DNA of 64,000 nt. Origin: Candidatus Latescibacterota bacterium. GTDB taxonomy: Bacteria > Latescibacterota > UBA2968. The notes under the pieces are model-generated. The model did not search any database and was not told the origin of the DNA. It saw only the letters and a list, made by a program, of their open reading frames with translations. Position 1 is the first letter of the stretch. Each line of letters opens with the position of its first letter. The translations under genes and the position numbers were made by a program. The stretch lies in contig OZ242195.1 of NCBI GenBank assembly GCA_965205975.1, positions 1,760,001 through 1,824,000 on the forward strand. Reading direction: 5' to 3'. This document shows, one piece after another, positions 47,515 through 57,985 of the stretch.

Positions 47515-48093
47515 TCAGCCATTATGGTCTTCAGACCCTTCTCGTGCCCGTTGCAATAATTCAGACAAATTTAGAGATTCCGCCCAGTGCTTCAGGTAAT
47601 CCCAATCTAACCTGTCGCCCTGTACTTTCAATATACCCGATACATCCCGTAATTGTCGGTCTGAAACTTCGCCACCTTTTCGATACCAGATCAATTTTTG
47701 CAGTACAATATCCTCTGGCGTTGCCACGACCAATTGCGTGCCAGCAATGGTCTGCGACCTTCGACGACGCATTTCTTCACGGTCAATCGCTTCAGAACCA
47801 GGTACAAAAATATCTACCTTAATCATTGTTTCGAGATGGATAACATTGAAGGAACTGTGCCGAGAAACAGCGCGAATAACATCTTCTTCTTCGATGTAAA
47901 ATGCGTTTTGGGTATTTGCAATGAGAGCTTGAATATGGTGATTCTTCAGTTCTGCAACCATGTCGATATCCTGTGTGGCGCGAGGCTCTCCGTAGATGGA
48001 ACTGGCAATTGACCCGCCCACCAGATATGGAATATCCAGGTTTTCAAAAATTTCAGCCATTTGCAGAGCGACGCACAGGGGTTCAGAAATCAC
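47515..48093 (-). CDS. Nucleotidyltransferase-fold protein (AbiEii/DUF6036-like)
   Basis: GGSIASSIYGEPRATQDID, KVDIF, ATPEDIVLQKL.WYR; probable GTG start next to the upstream stop. Confidence 0.75.
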   Translation of the reverse strand: MISEPLCVALQMAEIFENLDIPYLVGGSIASSIYGEPRATQDIDMVAELKNHHIQALIANTQNAFYIEEEDVIRAVSRHSSFNVIHLETMIKVDIFVPGSEAIDREEMRRRRSQTIAGTQLVVATPEDIVLQKLIWYRKGGEVSDRQLRDVSGILKVQGDRLDWDYLKHWAESLNLSELLQRAREGSEDHNG

Positions 48094-48094
48094 C

Positions 48095-48361
48095 TCAATA
48101 GCCCTCTTTGTGTGGGTCCCAGCCAAATGCTTTAATCATGGTCTGCCGGGGGAGCCGCAACGCGCCGAGGCGAAGGCGAATTTCTCGCTCATCTGCTTCG
48201 GGATACCGGCTGCGAATGCCCGAAATTGCAAGGTCTGTACACGCCTGAGAGAGTTGGGATATTTTTTCGGCTTTTTCGTGTGGTGTCATTCGCCGATACG
48301 CTTCAATGAGCAGGCGTTCTACCCTATGATTCGTGTCCCGCGATTGTGTTTTATAAGCCAT
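48095..48361 (-). CDS. Small helical protein, putative antitoxin-like partner of the nucleotidyltransferase
   Basis: GGAG RBS; SRDT..VE..IEAYRRMTPHEK...GIRSRYP; tightly coupled to the downstream gene. Confidence 0.65.
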   Translation of the reverse strand: MAYKTQSRDTNHRVERLLIEAYRRMTPHEKAEKISQLSQACTDLAISGIRSRYPEADEREIRLRLGALRLPRQTMIKAFGWDPHKEGY

Positions 48362-48716: not shown

Positions 48717-50543
48717 CTATGAGATTAAGGGAATTCCGGAAAAGCCAGAAACTATTGGTATTAGTAGAGACTTTAAAATTTCCATGGCTGAACTAGCTGC
48801 AAAACTAGAAAAAAAATTTTCTACCCATCGCTTCAATCGCTCCCTTCCGTTGCCATCCCCAGAGTTTATTGAGGCTAGTTCTTTGATGTGTTCTTCAATG
48901 TGTTCTTCAATGTGTTCTTTAATGTGTTCTTTAATGTGTTCTTTAATATGTTTTTCAAGCAACTTAACGAGTTCAGCAACCTTATTCCATTCGGGACTCT
49001 CAGCGGTAATATGTTTTTCAAGCTGCTTAACGAGTTCAGCAACCTTATTCCATTCGGGACTCTCAGCAGTTTTTTGGTCTAGTTCGGCAAGATGCTTTTT
49101 GGCCTGCTCAACAAATCTCTGAACCCTATCCTTATAGTCTTTTGACAGTGCATCTATAGTATCTTGGATATTTTCATTAGCGAGAGACTTTATCTTTGTC
49201 CCGTTTTTCTTAGTCTCAGTCTCAAGGGTGGTAATGCGGTCTGTCGCTTCAGTAAGGGAGGTGTTGCTACTTTCCATATCAGTCTCAAGGGTGGAAACGC
49301 GATCTGTCGCTTCAGTAAGGGAAGTGTTGCTACTTTCCATATCAGTCTCAAGGGTGGAAACGCGATCTGTCGCTTCAGTAAGGGAGGTGTTGCTACTTTC
49401 CATATCAGTCTCAAGGGTGGAAACGCGATCTGTCGCTTCAGTAAGGGAAGTGTTGCTACTTTCCAAACCAGTCTCAAGGGTGGTAATGCGGTCTGTCGCT
49501 TCAGTAAGGGAGGTGTTGCTACTTTCCAAACCAGTCTCAAGGGTGGAAACGCGATCTGTCGCTTCAGAAAGGGAGGTGTTGCTACTTTCCAAACCAGTCT
49601 CAAGAGTAGAAACGCGATCCGTCACTTCAGAAAGGGAGGTGTTGCTACTTTCCATATCAGTCTCAAGAGTAGAAACGCGATCTGTCGCTTCAGTAAGGGA
49701 GGTGTTGCTACTTTCCATATCAGTCTCAAGGGTGGTAATGCGGTCTGTCGCTTCAGTAAGGGAAGTGTTGCTACTTTCCATATCAGTCTCAAGGGTGGTA
49801 ATGCGATCTGTCGCTTCAGAAAGGGAGGTGTTGCTACTTTCCATATCAGTCTCAAGAGTAGAAACGCGATCCGTCACTTCAGTAAGGGAGGTGTTGCTAC
49901 TTTCCAAACCAGTCTCAAGAGTAGAAACGCGATCTGTCGCTTCAGTAAGGGAGGTGTTGCTACTTTCCATATCAGTCTCAAGGGTGGAAACGCGATCTGT
50001 CGCTTCAGTAAGGGAGGTGTTGCTACTTTCCAAACCAGTCTCAAGAGTGGTAATGCGATCCGTCACTTCAGAAAGGGAGGTGTTGCTACTTTCCAAACCA
50101 GTCTCAAGAGTAGAAACGCGGTCTGTCGCTTCAGTAAGGGAGGTGTTGCTACTTTCCAAACCAGTCTCAAGGGTGGAAACGCGATCCGTCACTTCAGAAA
50201 GGGAGGTGTTGCTACTTTCCATATCAGTCTCAAGAGTAGAAACGCGGTCTGTCGCTTCAGTAAGGGAGGTGTTGCTACTTTCCAAACCAGTCTCAAGGGT
50301 GGAAACGCGATCCGTCACTTCAGAAAGGGAGGTGTTGCTACTTTCCATATCAGTCTCAAGAGTAGAAACGCGATCCGTCACTTCAGTAAGGGAGGTGTTG
50401 CTACTTTCCAAACCAGTCTCAAGAGTGGTAATGCGGTCTGTCGCATTTGCCACATCACCTATGGCGAGGATTGCCAATATCATCGCCATTAATGCCATAA
50501 CGATCAAGATAATCCCTAACATCACCATCAAAGTCGTCTCCAT
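48717..50543 (-). CDS. Membrane-anchored long coiled-coil repeat protein (608 aa)
   Basis: AAGGAG RBS; N-terminal TM; 19+ copies of a 21-aa (3-heptad) unit; further internal repeats; hydrophobic C-terminus. Confidence 0.85.
   Translation of the reverse strand: METTLMVMLGIILIVMALMAMILAILAIGDVANATDRITTLETGLESSNTSLTEVTDRVSTLETDMESSNTSLSEVTDRVSTLETGLESSNTSLTEATDRVSTLETDMESSNTSLSEVTDRVSTLETGLESSNTSLTEATDRVSTLETGLESSNTSLSEVTDRITTLETGLESSNTSLTEATDRVSTLETDMESSNTSLTEATDRVSTLETGLESSNTSLTEVTDRVSTLETDMESSNTSLSEATDRITTLETDMESSNTSLTEATDRITTLETDMESSNTSLTEATDRVSTLETDMESSNTSLSEVTDRVSTLETGLESSNTSLSEATDRVSTLETGLESSNTSLTEATDRITTLETGLESSNTSLTEATDRVSTLETDMESSNTSLTEATDRVSTLETDMESSNTSLTEATDRVSTLETDMESSNTSLTEATDRITTLETETKKNGTKIKSLANENIQDTIDALSKDYKDRVQRFVEQAKKHLAELDQKTAESPEWNKVAELVKQLEKHITAESPEWNKVAELVKLLEKHIKEHIKEHIKEHIEEHIEEHIKELASINSGDGNGRERLKRWVENFFSSFAASSAMEILKSLLIPIVSGFSGIPLIS
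49217..50444. repeat. 63-bp coding tandem array, about 19.5 units
   Basis: Unit encodes TDR(V/I)(S/T)TLET(GL/DM)ESSNTSL(T/S)E(A/V); 19 ESSNTSL copies counted. Confidence 0.95.
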
Positions 50544-52984: not shown

Positions 52985-53722
52985 TCATCTACTATATGCC
53001 CCACTGACAAACTTCTCAATCTCATCTCGCCCTCGCGCAATAGCTTCATCGACAAAACGCGCTTTTATATTCTCATCAAAAAACGCATCTGCCCGTCTTC
53101 TGTTCTCAGCAAGATGCTTTTCCATATCATCAGACAGAGGGCGACCTATCATCTTGAGAAATATCTGCTCGAGAACAACGGGGTCTGCATTCTCTGCCCA
53201 TCCCCGCGCGCGCCTCACAAATCGAGATACTGTTTTGCGATCAATAAATCCCACCTCTCCACGTCCATCAAACTGATCCAGCACTCCCGCGACACCTGGA
53301 TAATTGATCGGCAATTCATCTACATAAGACCACAACCCATAAATAATGGGCCGCCAGTCCTCAACGCCGTGGACGTGAATCGTCACCTCATCGCGAAACG
53401 CTTCATCCGTCGTCAAATGCGCGATATACCCCATCAACAAAACGCGATCTCGCGGGTCCATATTCTGATAATCTGCCAGATTGGGATGCGCCTCAAACAT
53501 ACCCGAAACGGATTTGCCCCACGTCTCGCGCTGCTCCTCTGTATAAAAATGCGACCCGTACTTGCCCATCTTTCCGAGCAAACGCATCGCATCCGGCGCC
53601 ATAGAACCCGCCACAAGATCCGGCAAATACCGCCGATTTAGAGCACCGACCTCAGGCAAATCGCGCTCGAGCTGTACCTGCAACCCGAGCACCAATGCAA
53701 AATGACATCGCCCACGAGGCAT
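52985..53722 (-). CDS. Zinc-dependent phospholipase C-like protein
   Basis: N-terminal H, GSMAPD, SHF, GYIAHLTTD metal motif. Confidence 0.65.
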   Translation of the reverse strand: MPRGRCHFALVLGLQVQLERDLPEVGALNRRYLPDLVAGSMAPDAMRLLGKMGKYGSHFYTEEQRETWGKSVSGMFEAHPNLADYQNMDPRDRVLLMGYIAHLTTDEAFRDEVTIHVHGVEDWRPIIYGLWSYVDELPINYPGVAGVLDQFDGRGEVGFIDRKTVSRFVRRARGWAENADPVVLEQIFLKMIGRPLSDDMEKHLAENRRRADAFFDENIKARFVDEAIARGRDEIEKFVSGAYSR

Positions 53723-53746: not shown

Positions 53747-53884
53747 TCATCTGTAATTCTGATCGTATTTCAGAATATGCTCGAAAAGCCGTTGCATCAA
53801 TGCGCGAAAATCTTTGATTGACAGCACGACTGCGGTCTTCCGCCCTTTTGCATCCACGACATATTTGGGTTTGATATTGAGCAT
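53747..53884 (-). CDS. 45-aa RelB/Phd-like antitoxin N-terminal fragment (orphan, probably truncated)
   Basis: Read manually: MLNIKPKYVVDAKGRKTAVVLSIKDFRALMQRLFEHILKYDQNYR*; start overlaps the PIN stop (TGATG). Confidence 0.55.
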   Translation of the reverse strand: MLNIKPKYVVDAKGRKTAVVLSIKDFRALMQRLFEHILKYDQNYR

Positions 53885-54306
53885 CATTGTTCAACCGTTT
53901 TGAGCACAGTTATTCCCATCATCGCAAAATGATCGTCAAATGCATACGTCTCAGAAATGTTATGCTTCTGACAAACCGCGAAGCTGGTGCAATCTGTAAA
54001 TGATAATTGTACGGAATCATATTGCCGAAAGAGTTTCTTTGCTTCTTGAAACAGGATCTTATCAATTTCCGCGACAGTTAAAACACCAGTTTTTTCAACG
54101 CTTTCAACCAAGTCAAGAAACTGCACTGCTACCTGATGGCTCGATCTATATTTAAGCCATGTCACAGTCTCATCAATCACATAATCTGTCGTTAAAAGTC
54201 TCGCTTTCTGCTGTTTTAAGCCGTTGTAAATTACAACAGCATCGTCATGATATTGATCCCTCTGATTTAAAAGAGCAATCCAGGCACCGCTATCGACAAA
54301 AATCAT
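53884..54306 (-). CDS. vapC: PIN-domain (VapC-like) toxin
   Basis: IFVDSGAWIAL...DQYH..A, VIDET, SFTDCTSF, AFDDHF. Confidence 0.92.
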   Translation of the reverse strand: MIFVDSGAWIALLNQRDQYHDDAVVIYNGLKQQKARLLTTDYVIDETVTWLKYRSSHQVAVQFLDLVESVEKTGVLTVAEIDKILFQEAKKLFRQYDSVQLSFTDCTSFAVCQKHNISETYAFDDHFAMMGITVLKTVEQ

Positions 54307-54338
54307 TATTTTGAACGCTCTCCATAGATAACTTCATC

Positions 54339-55386
54339 ACGCGATGTGTGACTTCAAAATGTTACGAGGCCGTCAAAATCCAGCGGGTCTCTGTAATTGA
54401 TGATATTTAGAAAGACACACATGGTATGGGTTAAGATTTTGGTATGCCACAAGTTTAATAGATGCCAAGCATCTCGCACTTTCATGCGCGCAATATGCAA
54501 ACGTTCAGTCAATTGTGCGTAAACGGTTTCGACTAATCGCCTTGTGGTTCTCTTGGCTTTGGGCAAAATGAAAGGGGTGCGTTGTGGATTGTCTTTCATA
54601 TTGGACTTTAAGGGTGTCTTTATGCGTATGCGGTAGGTATCAAAGCACCTTTTTTGCCAGTCCAAATCCATAAATGCTGAATCGGCTAAGACGGTTGTAT
54701 CTCCCATTGTGCCTTCTATGAGTGCGTCTCGGCACTGCTTGTCGTGTCCATAGGCTTGCAGGATGGGTGCGTGGAGGATAAGGCCATAATCCGTGATCCT
54801 CAGACCGCCCTTAAAACCAAAATAGGCTTCGTTTTTAGCAGCACAGAAGCCTTTTGAAGGGGTAGGGAACTCAAAGACAGGCTCTGTTTTAAAAATCTTG
54901 CGCGTGTGTCGCCTTGCCAGTTTACAGATGGGTAAGGGCAAGGTGTCTATGATCTGACAGGACGCCTGATGCCCTTCGAGGCAGGCCACAATCCGCTGTT
55001 GCATCCACATCTTGACAACCCACAAATTGGCACATTGACGCACAAAGGCCGGACGATCTTTCAAAGTGGGAAACCAGCAAGAAAAATGTTCTTTCATCTG
55101 CTCATAAAGTTTCTTCTGGCTTGAATACCCCAAAAAGTGACCCACAATTTCTATGGTGAGGCATTCCACATCACTTAAACCGGGGTCAAAGCCTGCCCGA
55201 CGCGGCTTGCCATGCACCTCACAATACGCTGGATAGAGGTCGTCTTCAATAAAACAGTAGATTGCAATGACAAAAAGGGCTAAATTATACATCGGAGGTT
55301 CCTTTCGTTGTATGGCTTCTTGTTTTATGGACAATCCAAGATAGCCGAGGAACCTCTTTTTGTCTATTTAAAGTCACACATCACGT
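54339..55386 (-). mobile_element. Complete IS982-family insertion sequence with 16-bp terminal IRs and a 9-bp target duplication
   Basis: IRs acgcgatgtgtgactt (54339) and aagtcacacatcacgt (55371-55386), 15/16 match; AACTTCATC at 54330-54338 and 55387-55395. Confidence 0.93.
54354..55292 (-). CDS. IS982 family DDE transposase
   Basis: LSDVE, IIDTLPLPIC, YFGFK, ADSAF, KSNM, RRLVETVY.QL. Confidence 0.9.
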   Translation of the reverse strand: MYNLALFVIAIYCFIEDDLYPAYCEVHGKPRRAGFDPGLSDVECLTIEIVGHFLGYSSQKKLYEQMKEHFSCWFPTLKDRPAFVRQCANLWVVKMWMQQRIVACLEGHQASCQIIDTLPLPICKLARRHTRKIFKTEPVFEFPTPSKGFCAAKNEAYFGFKGGLRITDYGLILHAPILQAYGHDKQCRDALIEGTMGDTTVLADSAFMDLDWQKRCFDTYRIRIKTPLKSNMKDNPQRTPFILPKAKRTTRRLVETVYAQLTERLHIARMKVRDAWHLLNLWHTKILTHTMCVFLNIINYRDPLDFDGLVTF

Positions 55387-57051
55387 AACTTCATCATGAT
55401 TGACAGACCCATCAGTTCGGTCAGATTTTGCAAATCCAACCATCTCATCGAGAATCGCGTATCCTTCTTCTATTTTATTTTTTTCTACGATTTCGGGGTT
55501 GATTGGACCGCTCCGCACAAGAAAGATAAAGTAATCGAGAACGTCTAATGCCTGCCAGATAATTCCTGTGAACACATCTCGTAAATGCTGACTCTCAATG
55601 CCAAAGTCCTTAGCAATTTTTCGATAGTTGCGACCTTTGCGATGCGCGGCACTGCTGGAACGCAGACTCTGAAGCTTTCGCAGAAAGGCGATGCGCTCGG
55701 CAACACCTTCAACATCATGGGCACTAAGCACAGCTTCCAGGCGTGCAATGCTACCTTTAAGTCTCGCTTTCTGATCCTCAGGAATAAGCGTGTTTAGACG
55801 TCTTTCGTTTAGGGAATCAATGAGTATCTTTGTGAGACTCAAAATCAACGCATCAAAATCGCGTTGCTCGTCAGTAGATGGAATTCTCAAGCCTTGGAAA
55901 TGATAATCATCATCTGTGTCCAGTGGCAGCAACAACTGCCACCCCAGATATTCTTTACAGGTATCTTGCAACTTCTGATAACGTGCCCTAAACAAGTGTT
56001 CTGGCTGGTCTGATTCCGTAGCTTCTCCCATGAATTGACGACTAAAATAAGTCCTACTCACACCGCCTTCGGGTGGGATATTGTGTGATCGCCAGTGTAG
56101 CTGTTCTGTATAGGGAAGGGCTTGCCCAAGATCGCCCAACCACGCACAGACTTTGTCGTCGTGATGGTTGTCAATAGTCACTATCCACAAAGAGCCACAG
56201 TGCAGCGTCGAATCCTCTACGGTGTATTTACTGGGCTCTTGGTAGTATTTGTCTAAAACCTGTTTGCGAAAATGCACAGGGGTCAGATAATGGGGAGCAT
56301 CGGGGTTTGCGCCAGAATAATTTGCCAGAGTACTCGGGTCAGATGTATGGGTAATTTCATCTCCGTTCTCATCAACATCAATGATAAATTCCACATGCTT
56401 TTTGTTTCGTTTTTTAGATTTCGGTAGGGGTTCAATAAGTCTCTTTCCTTGTACCAGACTAACCGCTGAAGAGTTACTCTGATCGAAAAAATCATACTTC
56501 CAACACATAAGTCCATCCCTCTGCTCACTATCGCCTTTCTTAAATCCAAGTTCTCGCAACGAATACTTCGAGTGCTCTGGAAAAAAGAATTGGACTGATA
56601 GGTACATATCTTTGGCCGCTAAAAACTGACGAATTTCCTTAAGCCTTATCTTGATGCAGTCTGGCTTCACAATAGCTACTATTTCTTCATTACCTGCATC
56701 ATCAATCTTAATGTATTCATCCGCCTCTCTATCGTGATATAGATTGTGAAAAAGGCGAAACTCCTCGGATATTTCCCTGTAGCCCTCCCGCATTTCATCA
56801 AAGTTACGATCAATGATCAAAGGTTTAATTTTGTCGGTGGCTCCATTATCGGGTGAAAAGTCCCAATATGGGATAGAAAGTGTTTGCTCAATCTGAGCAG
56901 GGGGAATTAAAGCACAAGAGATATCGTAATCGTGGGACTCTTGGCGGTCCAGTAGATACACAGTGATCATCTCGGTCATTTTTAGATCGCGTTGCAACCA
57001 CTCCAGCCTCTCAGCTTGCGATAGCCGTTTTCGATCTAAATCAATGCTCAT
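55381..57051 (-). CDS. Large hypothetical protein with HEPN-like motif and antitoxin-like C-terminal tail, clipped by IS982
   Basis: AGGAGG RBS before ATG 57051; helical C-terminal region with LRSSSAAHRKG; tail LDEMVGFAKSDRTDGSVNHDEV. Confidence 0.75.
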   Translation of the reverse strand: MSIDLDRKRLSQAERLEWLQRDLKMTEMITVYLLDRQESHDYDISCALIPPAQIEQTLSIPYWDFSPDNGATDKIKPLIIDRNFDEMREGYREISEEFRLFHNLYHDREADEYIKIDDAGNEEIVAIVKPDCIKIRLKEIRQFLAAKDMYLSVQFFFPEHSKYSLRELGFKKGDSEQRDGLMCWKYDFFDQSNSSAVSLVQGKRLIEPLPKSKKRNKKHVEFIIDVDENGDEITHTSDPSTLANYSGANPDAPHYLTPVHFRKQVLDKYYQEPSKYTVEDSTLHCGSLWIVTIDNHHDDKVCAWLGDLGQALPYTEQLHWRSHNIPPEGGVSRTYFSRQFMGEATESDQPEHLFRARYQKLQDTCKEYLGWQLLLPLDTDDDYHFQGLRIPSTDEQRDFDALILSLTKILIDSLNERRLNTLIPEDQKARLKGSIARLEAVLSAHDVEGVAERIAFLRKLQSLRSSSAAHRKGRNYRKIAKDFGIESQHLRDVFTGIIWQALDVLDYFIFLVRSGPINPEIVEKNKIEEGYAILDEMVGFAKSDRTDGSVNHDEVT

Positions 57052-57090
57052 CACTATCCTCCTTCCGCTATTTTGAATCCTGATCAAACA

Positions 57091-57120
57091 AATGTATAGC
57101 ACAAAAACCACGTTTGTCAA
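57091..57120 (-). promoter_or_regulatory. Putative sigma70 promoter of the HEPN-like/PIN cassette
   Basis: TTGACA-18-TACATT on the minus strand, about 40 nt upstream of ATG 57051. Confidence 0.5.
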
Positions 57121-57142: not shown

Positions 57143-57985
57143 CTATCTCACCTCATAACTACCCGTATCATCCCGCCGCAGTCTTCCCCATGCAATATCC
57201 GGATCGTGCGGCCACACCATAATCCAGTCCTCGGAAACAGCCCTCTCCATAACCTCTTGCTTAACCAGATAGGTCTGCCGGGGATACAGATCGTAAGCCA
57301 TCACATAAATCGGCTTTAAGTGATGCGTCGTAGGAATCAAATCCCCCACAAAACAGAACGTATCCTTCCCTGTATGCACCAGCACAGATTGATGCCTGCG
57401 GGTATGCCCTGGCGTAACTATGACCTCGATAAGAGGACAAATACGCTCATCCCCCTCCAACAGCGCGAGCACAGGTGACAACGGCCTCATCACCTCATCG
57501 TATCGATACCCATTCACCGTCTGCCCATCGGCATTCTCCGCATCCTCCCATTCCCCCTTTTGCACATAATAAGTCGCATTTGGAAAAGCGGGCACATATT
57601 CACCACCCTCTTGCACCGTACACCCGCCAGCATGATCCTGGTGCAAATGCGTCAGCACAACCCGTGTAATCTCCTCGGGCGCAATCCGCAACGTCTCCAG
57701 AGACGATAGGAGACCATCCGACTCATCAAGCGCGTAAATCTCCCGCAGCTTTTCCGTCACTTTGCCCCCAAACCCGGTCTCAATCAGCACGGTCTCCCCT
57801 TTCCCTCTCACAAGCAAACAATTCATCGTCAACCCAATGCGGTTGCGCTCATCGGGCGGGTAACACCTCTCCCACAGCGGACGGGGCACAACCCCAAACA
57901 TCGCGCCGCCATCCATCCTCACCTGCCCAGCAGATAAAACCCACACATCGCAACCACCACTTTGCTTATAATCTACAATCGCCAT
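57143..57985 (-). CDS. MBL-fold metallo-hydrolase (YtnP-like)
   Basis: DGGAMFGVVP, THLHQDHAGG, TPGHT, GDLIP, YDLYP, PHD. Confidence 0.92.
   Translation of the reverse strand: MAIVDYKQSGGCDVWVLSAGQVRMDGGAMFGVVPRPLWERCYPPDERNRIGLTMNCLLVRGKGETVLIETGFGGKVTEKLREIYALDESDGLLSSLETLRIAPEEITRVVLTHLHQDHAGGCTVQEGGEYVPAFPNATYYVQKGEWEDAENADGQTVNGYRYDEVMRPLSPVLALLEGDERICPLIEVIVTPGHTRRHQSVLVHTGKDTFCFVGDLIPTTHHLKPIYVMAYDLYPRQTYLVKQEVMERAVSEDWIMVWPHDPDIAWGRLRRDDTGSYEVR

Follow-up and report, generated by a model that had tools for sequence, protein, structure and literature searches.

In type II toxin-antitoxin modules of the VapBC kind, the gene for a PIN-domain toxin lies behind an overlapping antitoxin-like frame; VapC20, for example, is a nuclease acting on the sarcin-ricin loop in 23S rRNA and is held by VapB20, according to the accessible part of its description (PMC7891357). 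As far as the available portions of the reports go, a large protein serves in VapBC52 as the antitoxin of a PIN ribonuclease (RNase) with a proposed anti-phage role (PMC13273310), and in CapRel-SJ46 an antitoxin element doubles as, or is joined to, a phage sensor (10.1101/2023.12.08.570793). Here we describe a locus in a 64,000-nucleotide stretch of DNA (the window) from Candidatus Latescibacterota bacterium (contig OZ242195.1, positions 1,760,001 to 1,824,000 of the forward strand), where a PIN gene stands behind a larger gene, now interrupted by an insertion sequence (IS), whose product consists of a HEPN-like body and a short antitoxin-like tail. We found that tail and PIN gene together are portable across at least three unrelated proteins, a feature missed in a preliminary description of this DNA. 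We incline to the view that this is a VapBC-type module in which the DNA-binding domain of the antitoxin would have been lost and the tail would ride as a tag on defence genes, as a passenger that locks their reading frame.

Tail and PIN gene behind three unrelated proteins

In a comparison of 22 genome loci, a PIN gene was located directly behind the tail in all 14 tailed loci (one truncated where its contig ends, another carrying an internal deletion) and in none of the 8 tailless ones, so that tail and PIN neighbour are kept together in homologues, a point the preliminary description had raised. The tailed loci span Latescibacterota, Poribacteria, Caldilineaceae and Nitrospinota, lineages that are common sponge symbionts. 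Searches with the body gave 1920 matches among 8000 scored candidates, and the family comprises 2451 clusters at 50% identity. The tail was present in 88 of the 120 best-listed body homologues and in 3 of the 150 best of the cluster representatives; as the exception across the family, the tail is taken to be a derived state in the lineages that have it.

The same tail and PIN gene were found behind the HEPN-like body, a DUF2806 protein and a Type ISP-like restriction-modification (R-M) enzyme. Specifically, at the same chromosomal site as that of the window, the tail in genome G070 ends a DUF2806 protein (PF10987, 133 bits), and the PIN behind it is 94% identical and sister to the window PIN (100/99 support). 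The DUF2806-tail fusion was also found in two Caldilineaceae genomes, in a separate part of the PIN tree, and in five protein clusters. DUF2806 is, in the accessible part of the source, a domain of the anti-phage system Belisama (10.1101/2024.07.02.601686). An enzyme with N6-methyltransferase (MTase), ISP-coupler and ISP_C regions (PF18135, PF22240 and PF02384) carries the tail in G126, G116, G141 and G039, and the tagged R-M enzymes fall into three clusters, one with 35 members. Since the R-M enzyme is often encoded directly upstream of the body gene, at least the fusion in G039 may simply be explained by deletion of the body. In the PIN tree, from which two damaged PINs and PINs shorter than 120 aa were excluded and which is unrooted as regards the direction of fusion, all fused forms and the PIN of a free small protein, L065, formed one clade (54 rows, 95/92).

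The window locus lies between a gene for a metallo-beta-lactamase-fold protein (52985-53722) and one for a Zn-dependent phospholipase-C-like protein (57143-57985). The gap between these two genes is a defence hotspot of the genus (L053, L059-L062), occupied by an R-M enzyme, body, DUF2806 or STAND protein. Directly upstream of the DUF2806-tail gene of G070 is a gene for a 1552-aa, Avs-like protein with SMEK_N and NACHT domains (L053:6020-10678, minus strand). In G018, the body position is occupied by a gene for a DUF2321 plus DpnII/MboI-type nuclease (L058:4785-5564, minus strand), behind which come a tail remnant of 52 aa and a stop-bearing PIN.

Relationship of the tail to small antitoxin-like proteins

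The tail is about 35 aa long, with five residues invariant among 49 sequences. Its 5' part in the window (55387..55494, minus strand; profile E 1.7e-21) corresponds to a helix followed by a flexible segment that reaches the H-D of the motif D-x-S-x-x-H-D-x-x-I-Y, with a pLDDT below 50 at the end. In front of PINs more distant from this clade lie small proteins whose N-termini vary and which have a C-terminal motif in common; 4 of the 16 scanned had RHH, Phd/YefM or AF2212-like hits and 12 had none. The tail profile matched the C-termini of 17 such small proteins with a probability of 95.8 (E 6.6e-9, 26 columns). Free proteins of 75-76 aa before a PIN of the same clade were found twice, on a metagenome contig (L065) and in genome G108 (L159). 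A tail profile built without L065 gave it 48.5 bits, the RHH-type protein L039 scoring 23.8 and the remaining small proteins at most 12.7. By profile match, the tail is the C-terminal half of free antitoxin-like proteins of about 76 aa, and the likeness to the C-terminus of small antitoxins noted in the preliminary description was hence well founded. A Pfam scan of L065 gave no hit; the N-terminal halves of L065 and L159 seem to be AbrB-like. Neither Pfam nor the predicted model showed an AbrB, RHH, HTH or Phd DNA-binding domain in the 562-aa protein upstream of the window PIN, and because such a domain is absent, ordinary autoregulation is not expected.

The dN/dS of the tail was 0.24 in frame and 1.41 and 1.37 in the other two frames (28 codons, 48 tails, from pooled pairs that are not independent), and that of the PIN was 0.20. 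Judged from such codon comparisons, the tail peptide is under purifying selection. These data bear on the alternative named in the preliminary description, an accidental fusion from cassette stacking. The origin of the arrangement was probably accidental, the copy in the window is broken, with conserved residues missing from its N-terminus, and many loci are decaying; however, the frequency of the tail among the best homologues, its low in-frame dN/dS and its five invariant residues argue against a functionless accident, which we regard as highly improbable, and the presence of PIN in 14 of 14 tailed loci across four phyla rules out a one-off fusion.

The PIN gene and its coupling to the tail

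The PIN gene (53884..54306, minus strand) is predicted to encode a VapC-type RNase of 140 aa (PF01850, E 1.8e-12), with the acidic residues D5, E46, D105 and D124 kept in 90-100% of 49 sequences. Its nearest solved relative was VapC20 (5wzf, 5wz4; profile match E 4.9e-16), beside which AF_1683 (1w8i) was listed among the nearest solved toxins; the NCBIfam VapC model scored 17, below its cut-off of 80. In intact loci, the stop of the upstream gene and the PIN start overlap as TAATG or ATGA, with a gap of -3 or 0 nearly everywhere.

Such tight coupling would also suit an adaptor, in which the tail would bring the PIN to its cargo to serve as a second effector, or would do no more than couple translation, the PIN being inactive until the cargo activates it. 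Defence systems of an ATPase plus a PIN without VapB exist, for example HEC-03, in the part of its report that is accessible (10.1101/2024.01.29.577857), and in the window an intact PIN is tolerated alongside a tail that is clipped. However, the tail is homologous to small antitoxin-like proteins and selected at the peptide level, and its retention after deletion of the cargo, described below, would make little sense for an adaptor, making this explanation rather improbable.

Insertion of an IS982-family element in the window copy

An IS982-family element of 1048 bp (54339..55386, minus strand), with 20-bp terminal inverted repeats that are 90% complementary, separates the body gene from the PIN gene. 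It is bordered on either side by a 9-bp target duplication, AACTTCATC, with copy 1 at 55387-55395 and copy 2 at 54330-54338. The transposase open reading frame (ORF; 54354-55334, minus strand) is directed towards the PIN gene, and its product matched the IS982 model NF033520 of NCBIfam with 163 bits (cut-off 130); membership in the family is indicated by the transposase model above cut-off, the inverted repeats and the target duplication, all of which are present. The genome carries four full copies of this element, with short duplicated flanks around each.

Removal of the element and one repeat gives a 562-aa open frame on the minus strand starting at ATG 57051, the TAA of which shares one base with the PIN ATG (TAATG at 54304-54308). 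The same ending was found in uninterrupted natural alleles (P0008, P0011 and P0016; G037 and G070), ATGA being the form in most relatives, and contigs from two public runs, aligned at 85% likeness and with one or both stemming from a related strain, span the empty site with a skip of 1057 nt. The duplication, inverted repeats and uninterrupted relatives agree with the preliminary description, which had claimed both the restored frame and its overlap with the PIN start.

In its present state, the body gene (55381..57051, minus strand) stops one codon within the IS and encodes 556 aa, compared with 562 aa without the IS. Seven codons at the end of the tail, together with its stop, are orphaned at 54306..54329 (minus strand); the insertion thereby strips the tail of seven residues, including an Ile invariant among 49 tails and a Tyr present in at least 90% of them. 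The PIN start is now 1075 nt from the upstream stop and 48 nt behind the transposase stop. With these seven residues lost and the PIN uncoupled, the window copy is probably a dead or dying allele. Outside the window, at G000:C1:3918779-3919443, a second, distant PIN (31% identity) lies behind a small protein ending in an H-D-x-Y-L-Y-type motif like that of the tail; this ordinary free pair might cross-protect the split window copy.

A start of the body gene at TTG 57120 was judged from homologue N-termini to be less likely than ATG 57051. A sigma-70-like promoter match (57091..57120, minus strand), 40 nt upstream of this ATG, agrees at 10 of 12 consensus positions and also fits this start; it is a consensus match only, the region having six such matches against 6.5 expected by chance.

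Natural variants and fate of the module

Searches with PIN and tail yielded 79 loci, mutually related, of which 68 were counted by state of tail and PIN after exclusion of 11 (eight full-length PINs with a changed acidic motif, two loci at contig edges and one masked). With an intact PIN (51 loci), the tail was complete in 48 and damaged in 3; with a broken or missing PIN (17 loci), it was complete in 9 and damaged in 8 (Fisher p 3.5e-4, overstated since the genomes are kin). All three loci combining a damaged tail with an intact PIN, the window included, lack the normal stop/start overlap. Nineteen loci with a shortened body showed eight distinct breakpoints, each leaving start and tail in frame, and the smallest protein left, present in four genomes, amounts to 66 aa and comprises some ten body residues, linker and tail. 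All 36 of the full-length tailed bodies had an intact R-x5-H motif, versus 7 of 16 truncated ones, suggesting that the body remnant decays while the tail is kept.

Two further groups of variants were observed. In a divergent sub-lineage of Poribacteria (L134, L135, L136 and L138), the last ~360 aa of the body are followed by a clipped tail and a separated PIN, and three of the four lack R-x5-H. A 68-aa gene, presumably antitoxin-like, lies behind the PIN in G049 (L022:7198-7404), and the PIN deletions in G039 and G086 (L174, L176) end at this gene.

A series of steps may account for the arrangement. By homology, the tail of about 35 aa would have come from a small free antitoxin-like protein of the same PIN clade, as its C-terminal half. 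It is fused in frame to a HEPN-like protein of about 540 aa or, elsewhere, to a DUF2806 protein or a Type ISP-like enzyme, and the PIN start overlaps the stop. The tail would bind and silence the PIN RNase, and re-initiation where stop and start overlap would bring about PIN translation, so that toxin would be made only after antidote. As the variants suggest, while the PIN is active a change would survive only if translation of the tail continues or if it also uncouples or kills the PIN. The module would hitch-hike on the promoter, start and frame of the upstream defence gene at a hotspot, deletions and recombination would pass the tag onward, and the tag would lock the reading frame, not the function of the cargo. 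From the comparisons above, it is quite probable that the tail is the antidote of the PIN; growth arrest by RNA cleavage would be the PIN's effect, as its family and its decay at damaged-tail loci suggest.

The tail could also be a portable guard tag of about 35 aa on any defence protein, with phage damage to the tagged protein, its cleavage, remodelling or synthesis shut-off freeing the PIN and aborting infection; it would then be a modular, fail-safe layer of immunity. The commonest carrier would then be a new single-gene defence family sensing a phage protein through a free-standing domain like the C-terminal domain (CTD) of Avs3. This explanation has its binding step in common with the hitch-hiking module and adds a function to it. 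Each of the three cargos is a known or probable defence protein (DUF2806 as in Belisama, N6-MTase/ISP_C and the Avs3-CTD-like body), and tailless relatives of the body occur in a GMT island, at variable sites of P2-like prophages and next to Abi_2 and methylase genes. Fusions that are full length and keep the motif intact persist over four phyla, one cluster of tagged R-M enzymes has 35 members, and VapB52, as far as its report is accessible (PMC13273310), offers a precedent for a large sensing antitoxin with several domains. However, with the tag in so few of the best cluster representatives, most of the body family is untagged and the cargos function without it. Furthermore, the tag may land on defence cargos only because these lie upstream at hotspots, and bodies that are truncated and have a dead motif persist beside an intact tail and PIN in several genomes, leaving nothing to guard. 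The frequent deletion of the body with survival of the tail is explained no less well by a hitch-hiking addiction module than by a dedicated sensor. Since many survivors carry dead cargo, we favour a passenger and consider a guard unlikely. The proposal in the preliminary description that a defence-linked protein doubles as the antitoxin is thus upheld in part, in that the tail is homologous to antitoxin-like proteins and conserved with the PIN over four phyla; its further suggestion, that loss or cleavage of the protein would free the toxin, is a hypothesis.

Several observations weigh against the hitch-hiking module. Nine loci have a complete tail and a broken or missing PIN. In L020 and L021 the body is frameshifted and both tail and PIN are intact, the explanations for this being limited to coupling, an internal start or an assembly error. 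Contigs of run X1 show body deletions and PIN deletions side by side, so the module is lost readily, and the window retains an intact PIN close behind the transposase stop although its tail is truncated. The first acidic residue of the L065 PIN is changed and the G108 PIN is partly masked, and these free donors are therefore only putative working pairs. L065 also branches inside the fused clade, where its long branch is poorly placed; it may be the donor or may have re-acquired a DNA-binding domain, so that the fusion may have run in either direction. The tail profile had no match among solved structures, and no characterised VapB was tied to the tail by profile; binding by the tail, toxicity of the PIN and a defence role of the body are predictions.

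The body family

The body belongs to an unnamed, widespread family that combines an Avs3-C-terminal-like domain with a HEPN-like bundle. The N-terminal, beta-rich domain (aa 1-210; 56422..57051, minus strand), a candidate sensor with a fold like the Avs3 CTD, lacks in the window two segments of about 20 and 8 residues that relatives have. The helical HEPN-like domain (aa 349-516; 55504..56007, minus strand) contains the R-x5-H motif (R464 and H470; 55642..55662, minus strand). Across 128 diverse body homologues, H470 is invariant and R464 is present in at least 90%. Motif conservation suggests that the body is HEPN-like, as had been proposed from the motif, and the predicted fold agrees weakly. 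No HEPN model in Pfam, the libraries of which hold described families only, matched the window protein or 39 relatives, and no sequence match to the body was found in Pfam, NCBIfam or PDB. A scan of three window proteins against PADLOC-DB 2.0, a check envisaged for the window ORF in the preliminary description, gave only one weak match (E 0.0084 over 43 residues). The 556-aa model has no NTPase or TPR region and shares only the CTD-like domain with Avs. In Avs2, the C-terminal region contacts the terminase ATPase, and its removal together with the TPR region auto-activates the protein, as stated in the accessible part of the report (10.64898/2026.08.25.746987).

Tailless body genes (L179:5974-7584, L180:5899-7563 and L183:7974-9554) are inserted in two P2-like prophages, beside the baseplate V gene, and on a plasmid, immediately behind gmtX. 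Further fusions of the body family (P0130, P0182, P0250 and P0267) include a C-terminal HTH_3-matching protein (764 aa, the Pfam match lying at its N-terminus), an 857-aa protein with a C-terminal PNP_UDP_1 phosphorylase domain and unnamed extensions of about 230 aa.

Elsewhere in the window, a 608-aa frame (48717-50543, minus strand) has a hydrophobic N-terminus and many tandem units of about 21 aa rich in Thr, Ser and Glu, the opposite strand also having long open frames. Coupled frames of 88 and 203 aa (47515-48361, minus strand) are presumably a nucleotidyltransferase-type pair.

Comparison with known systems

The natural variants show a way in which a toxin-antitoxin module could shed its regulator and become a peptide tag moving between cargos, and they open to testing the standing question of whether such modules, where they lie in defence islands, guard the defence genes or travel as passengers. 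If it functioned on an inert carrier, the tag would be a compact in-frame lock for synthetic biology. With its 2451 clusters, the untagged body family is a candidate anti-phage RNase without a name, and it has a domain that in this analysis was otherwise found only in an Avs sensor.

By the accessible parts of their descriptions, HEC-08, Esos and Taranis/AbiJ are single-gene HEPN RNases of defence, with which the body has in common an R-x5-H motif in a helical bundle (compare Rx4-6H of HEC-08); the comparison with Esos is by description only. With Avs, the body shares the Avs3-CTD-like fold of its N-terminal domain, whereas the STAND and TPR regions of Avs are absent from the body. Belisama (DUF2806) and Type ISP-like R-M enzymes are the same proteins as the other two cargos, but here they occur with tag and PIN, and the available text on Belisama mentions no tag.

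In the literature found, which comprised neither subscription journals nor bioRxiv supplements and was in part accessible only in portions, an arrangement of one tag on unrelated cargos with a PIN was not described. Unlike in ordinary VapBC modules, the antitoxin part here is a tag on unrelated proteins of 330-1070 aa. In CapRel-SJ46, as far as its report is available, toxin and antitoxin form one chain, whereas here the toxin is encoded by a separate gene and the antitoxin is carried by a third party. VapBC52, within the same limits of the source, has a dedicated, peptidase-containing antitoxin that cleaves itself on single-stranded DNA and binds via its N-terminal domain, whereas the element described here is a C-terminal peptide common to interchangeable cargos that also occur alone. 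Compared with VapB52 and CapRel as they are described in the accessible texts, what is new is a tag common to unrelated cargos.

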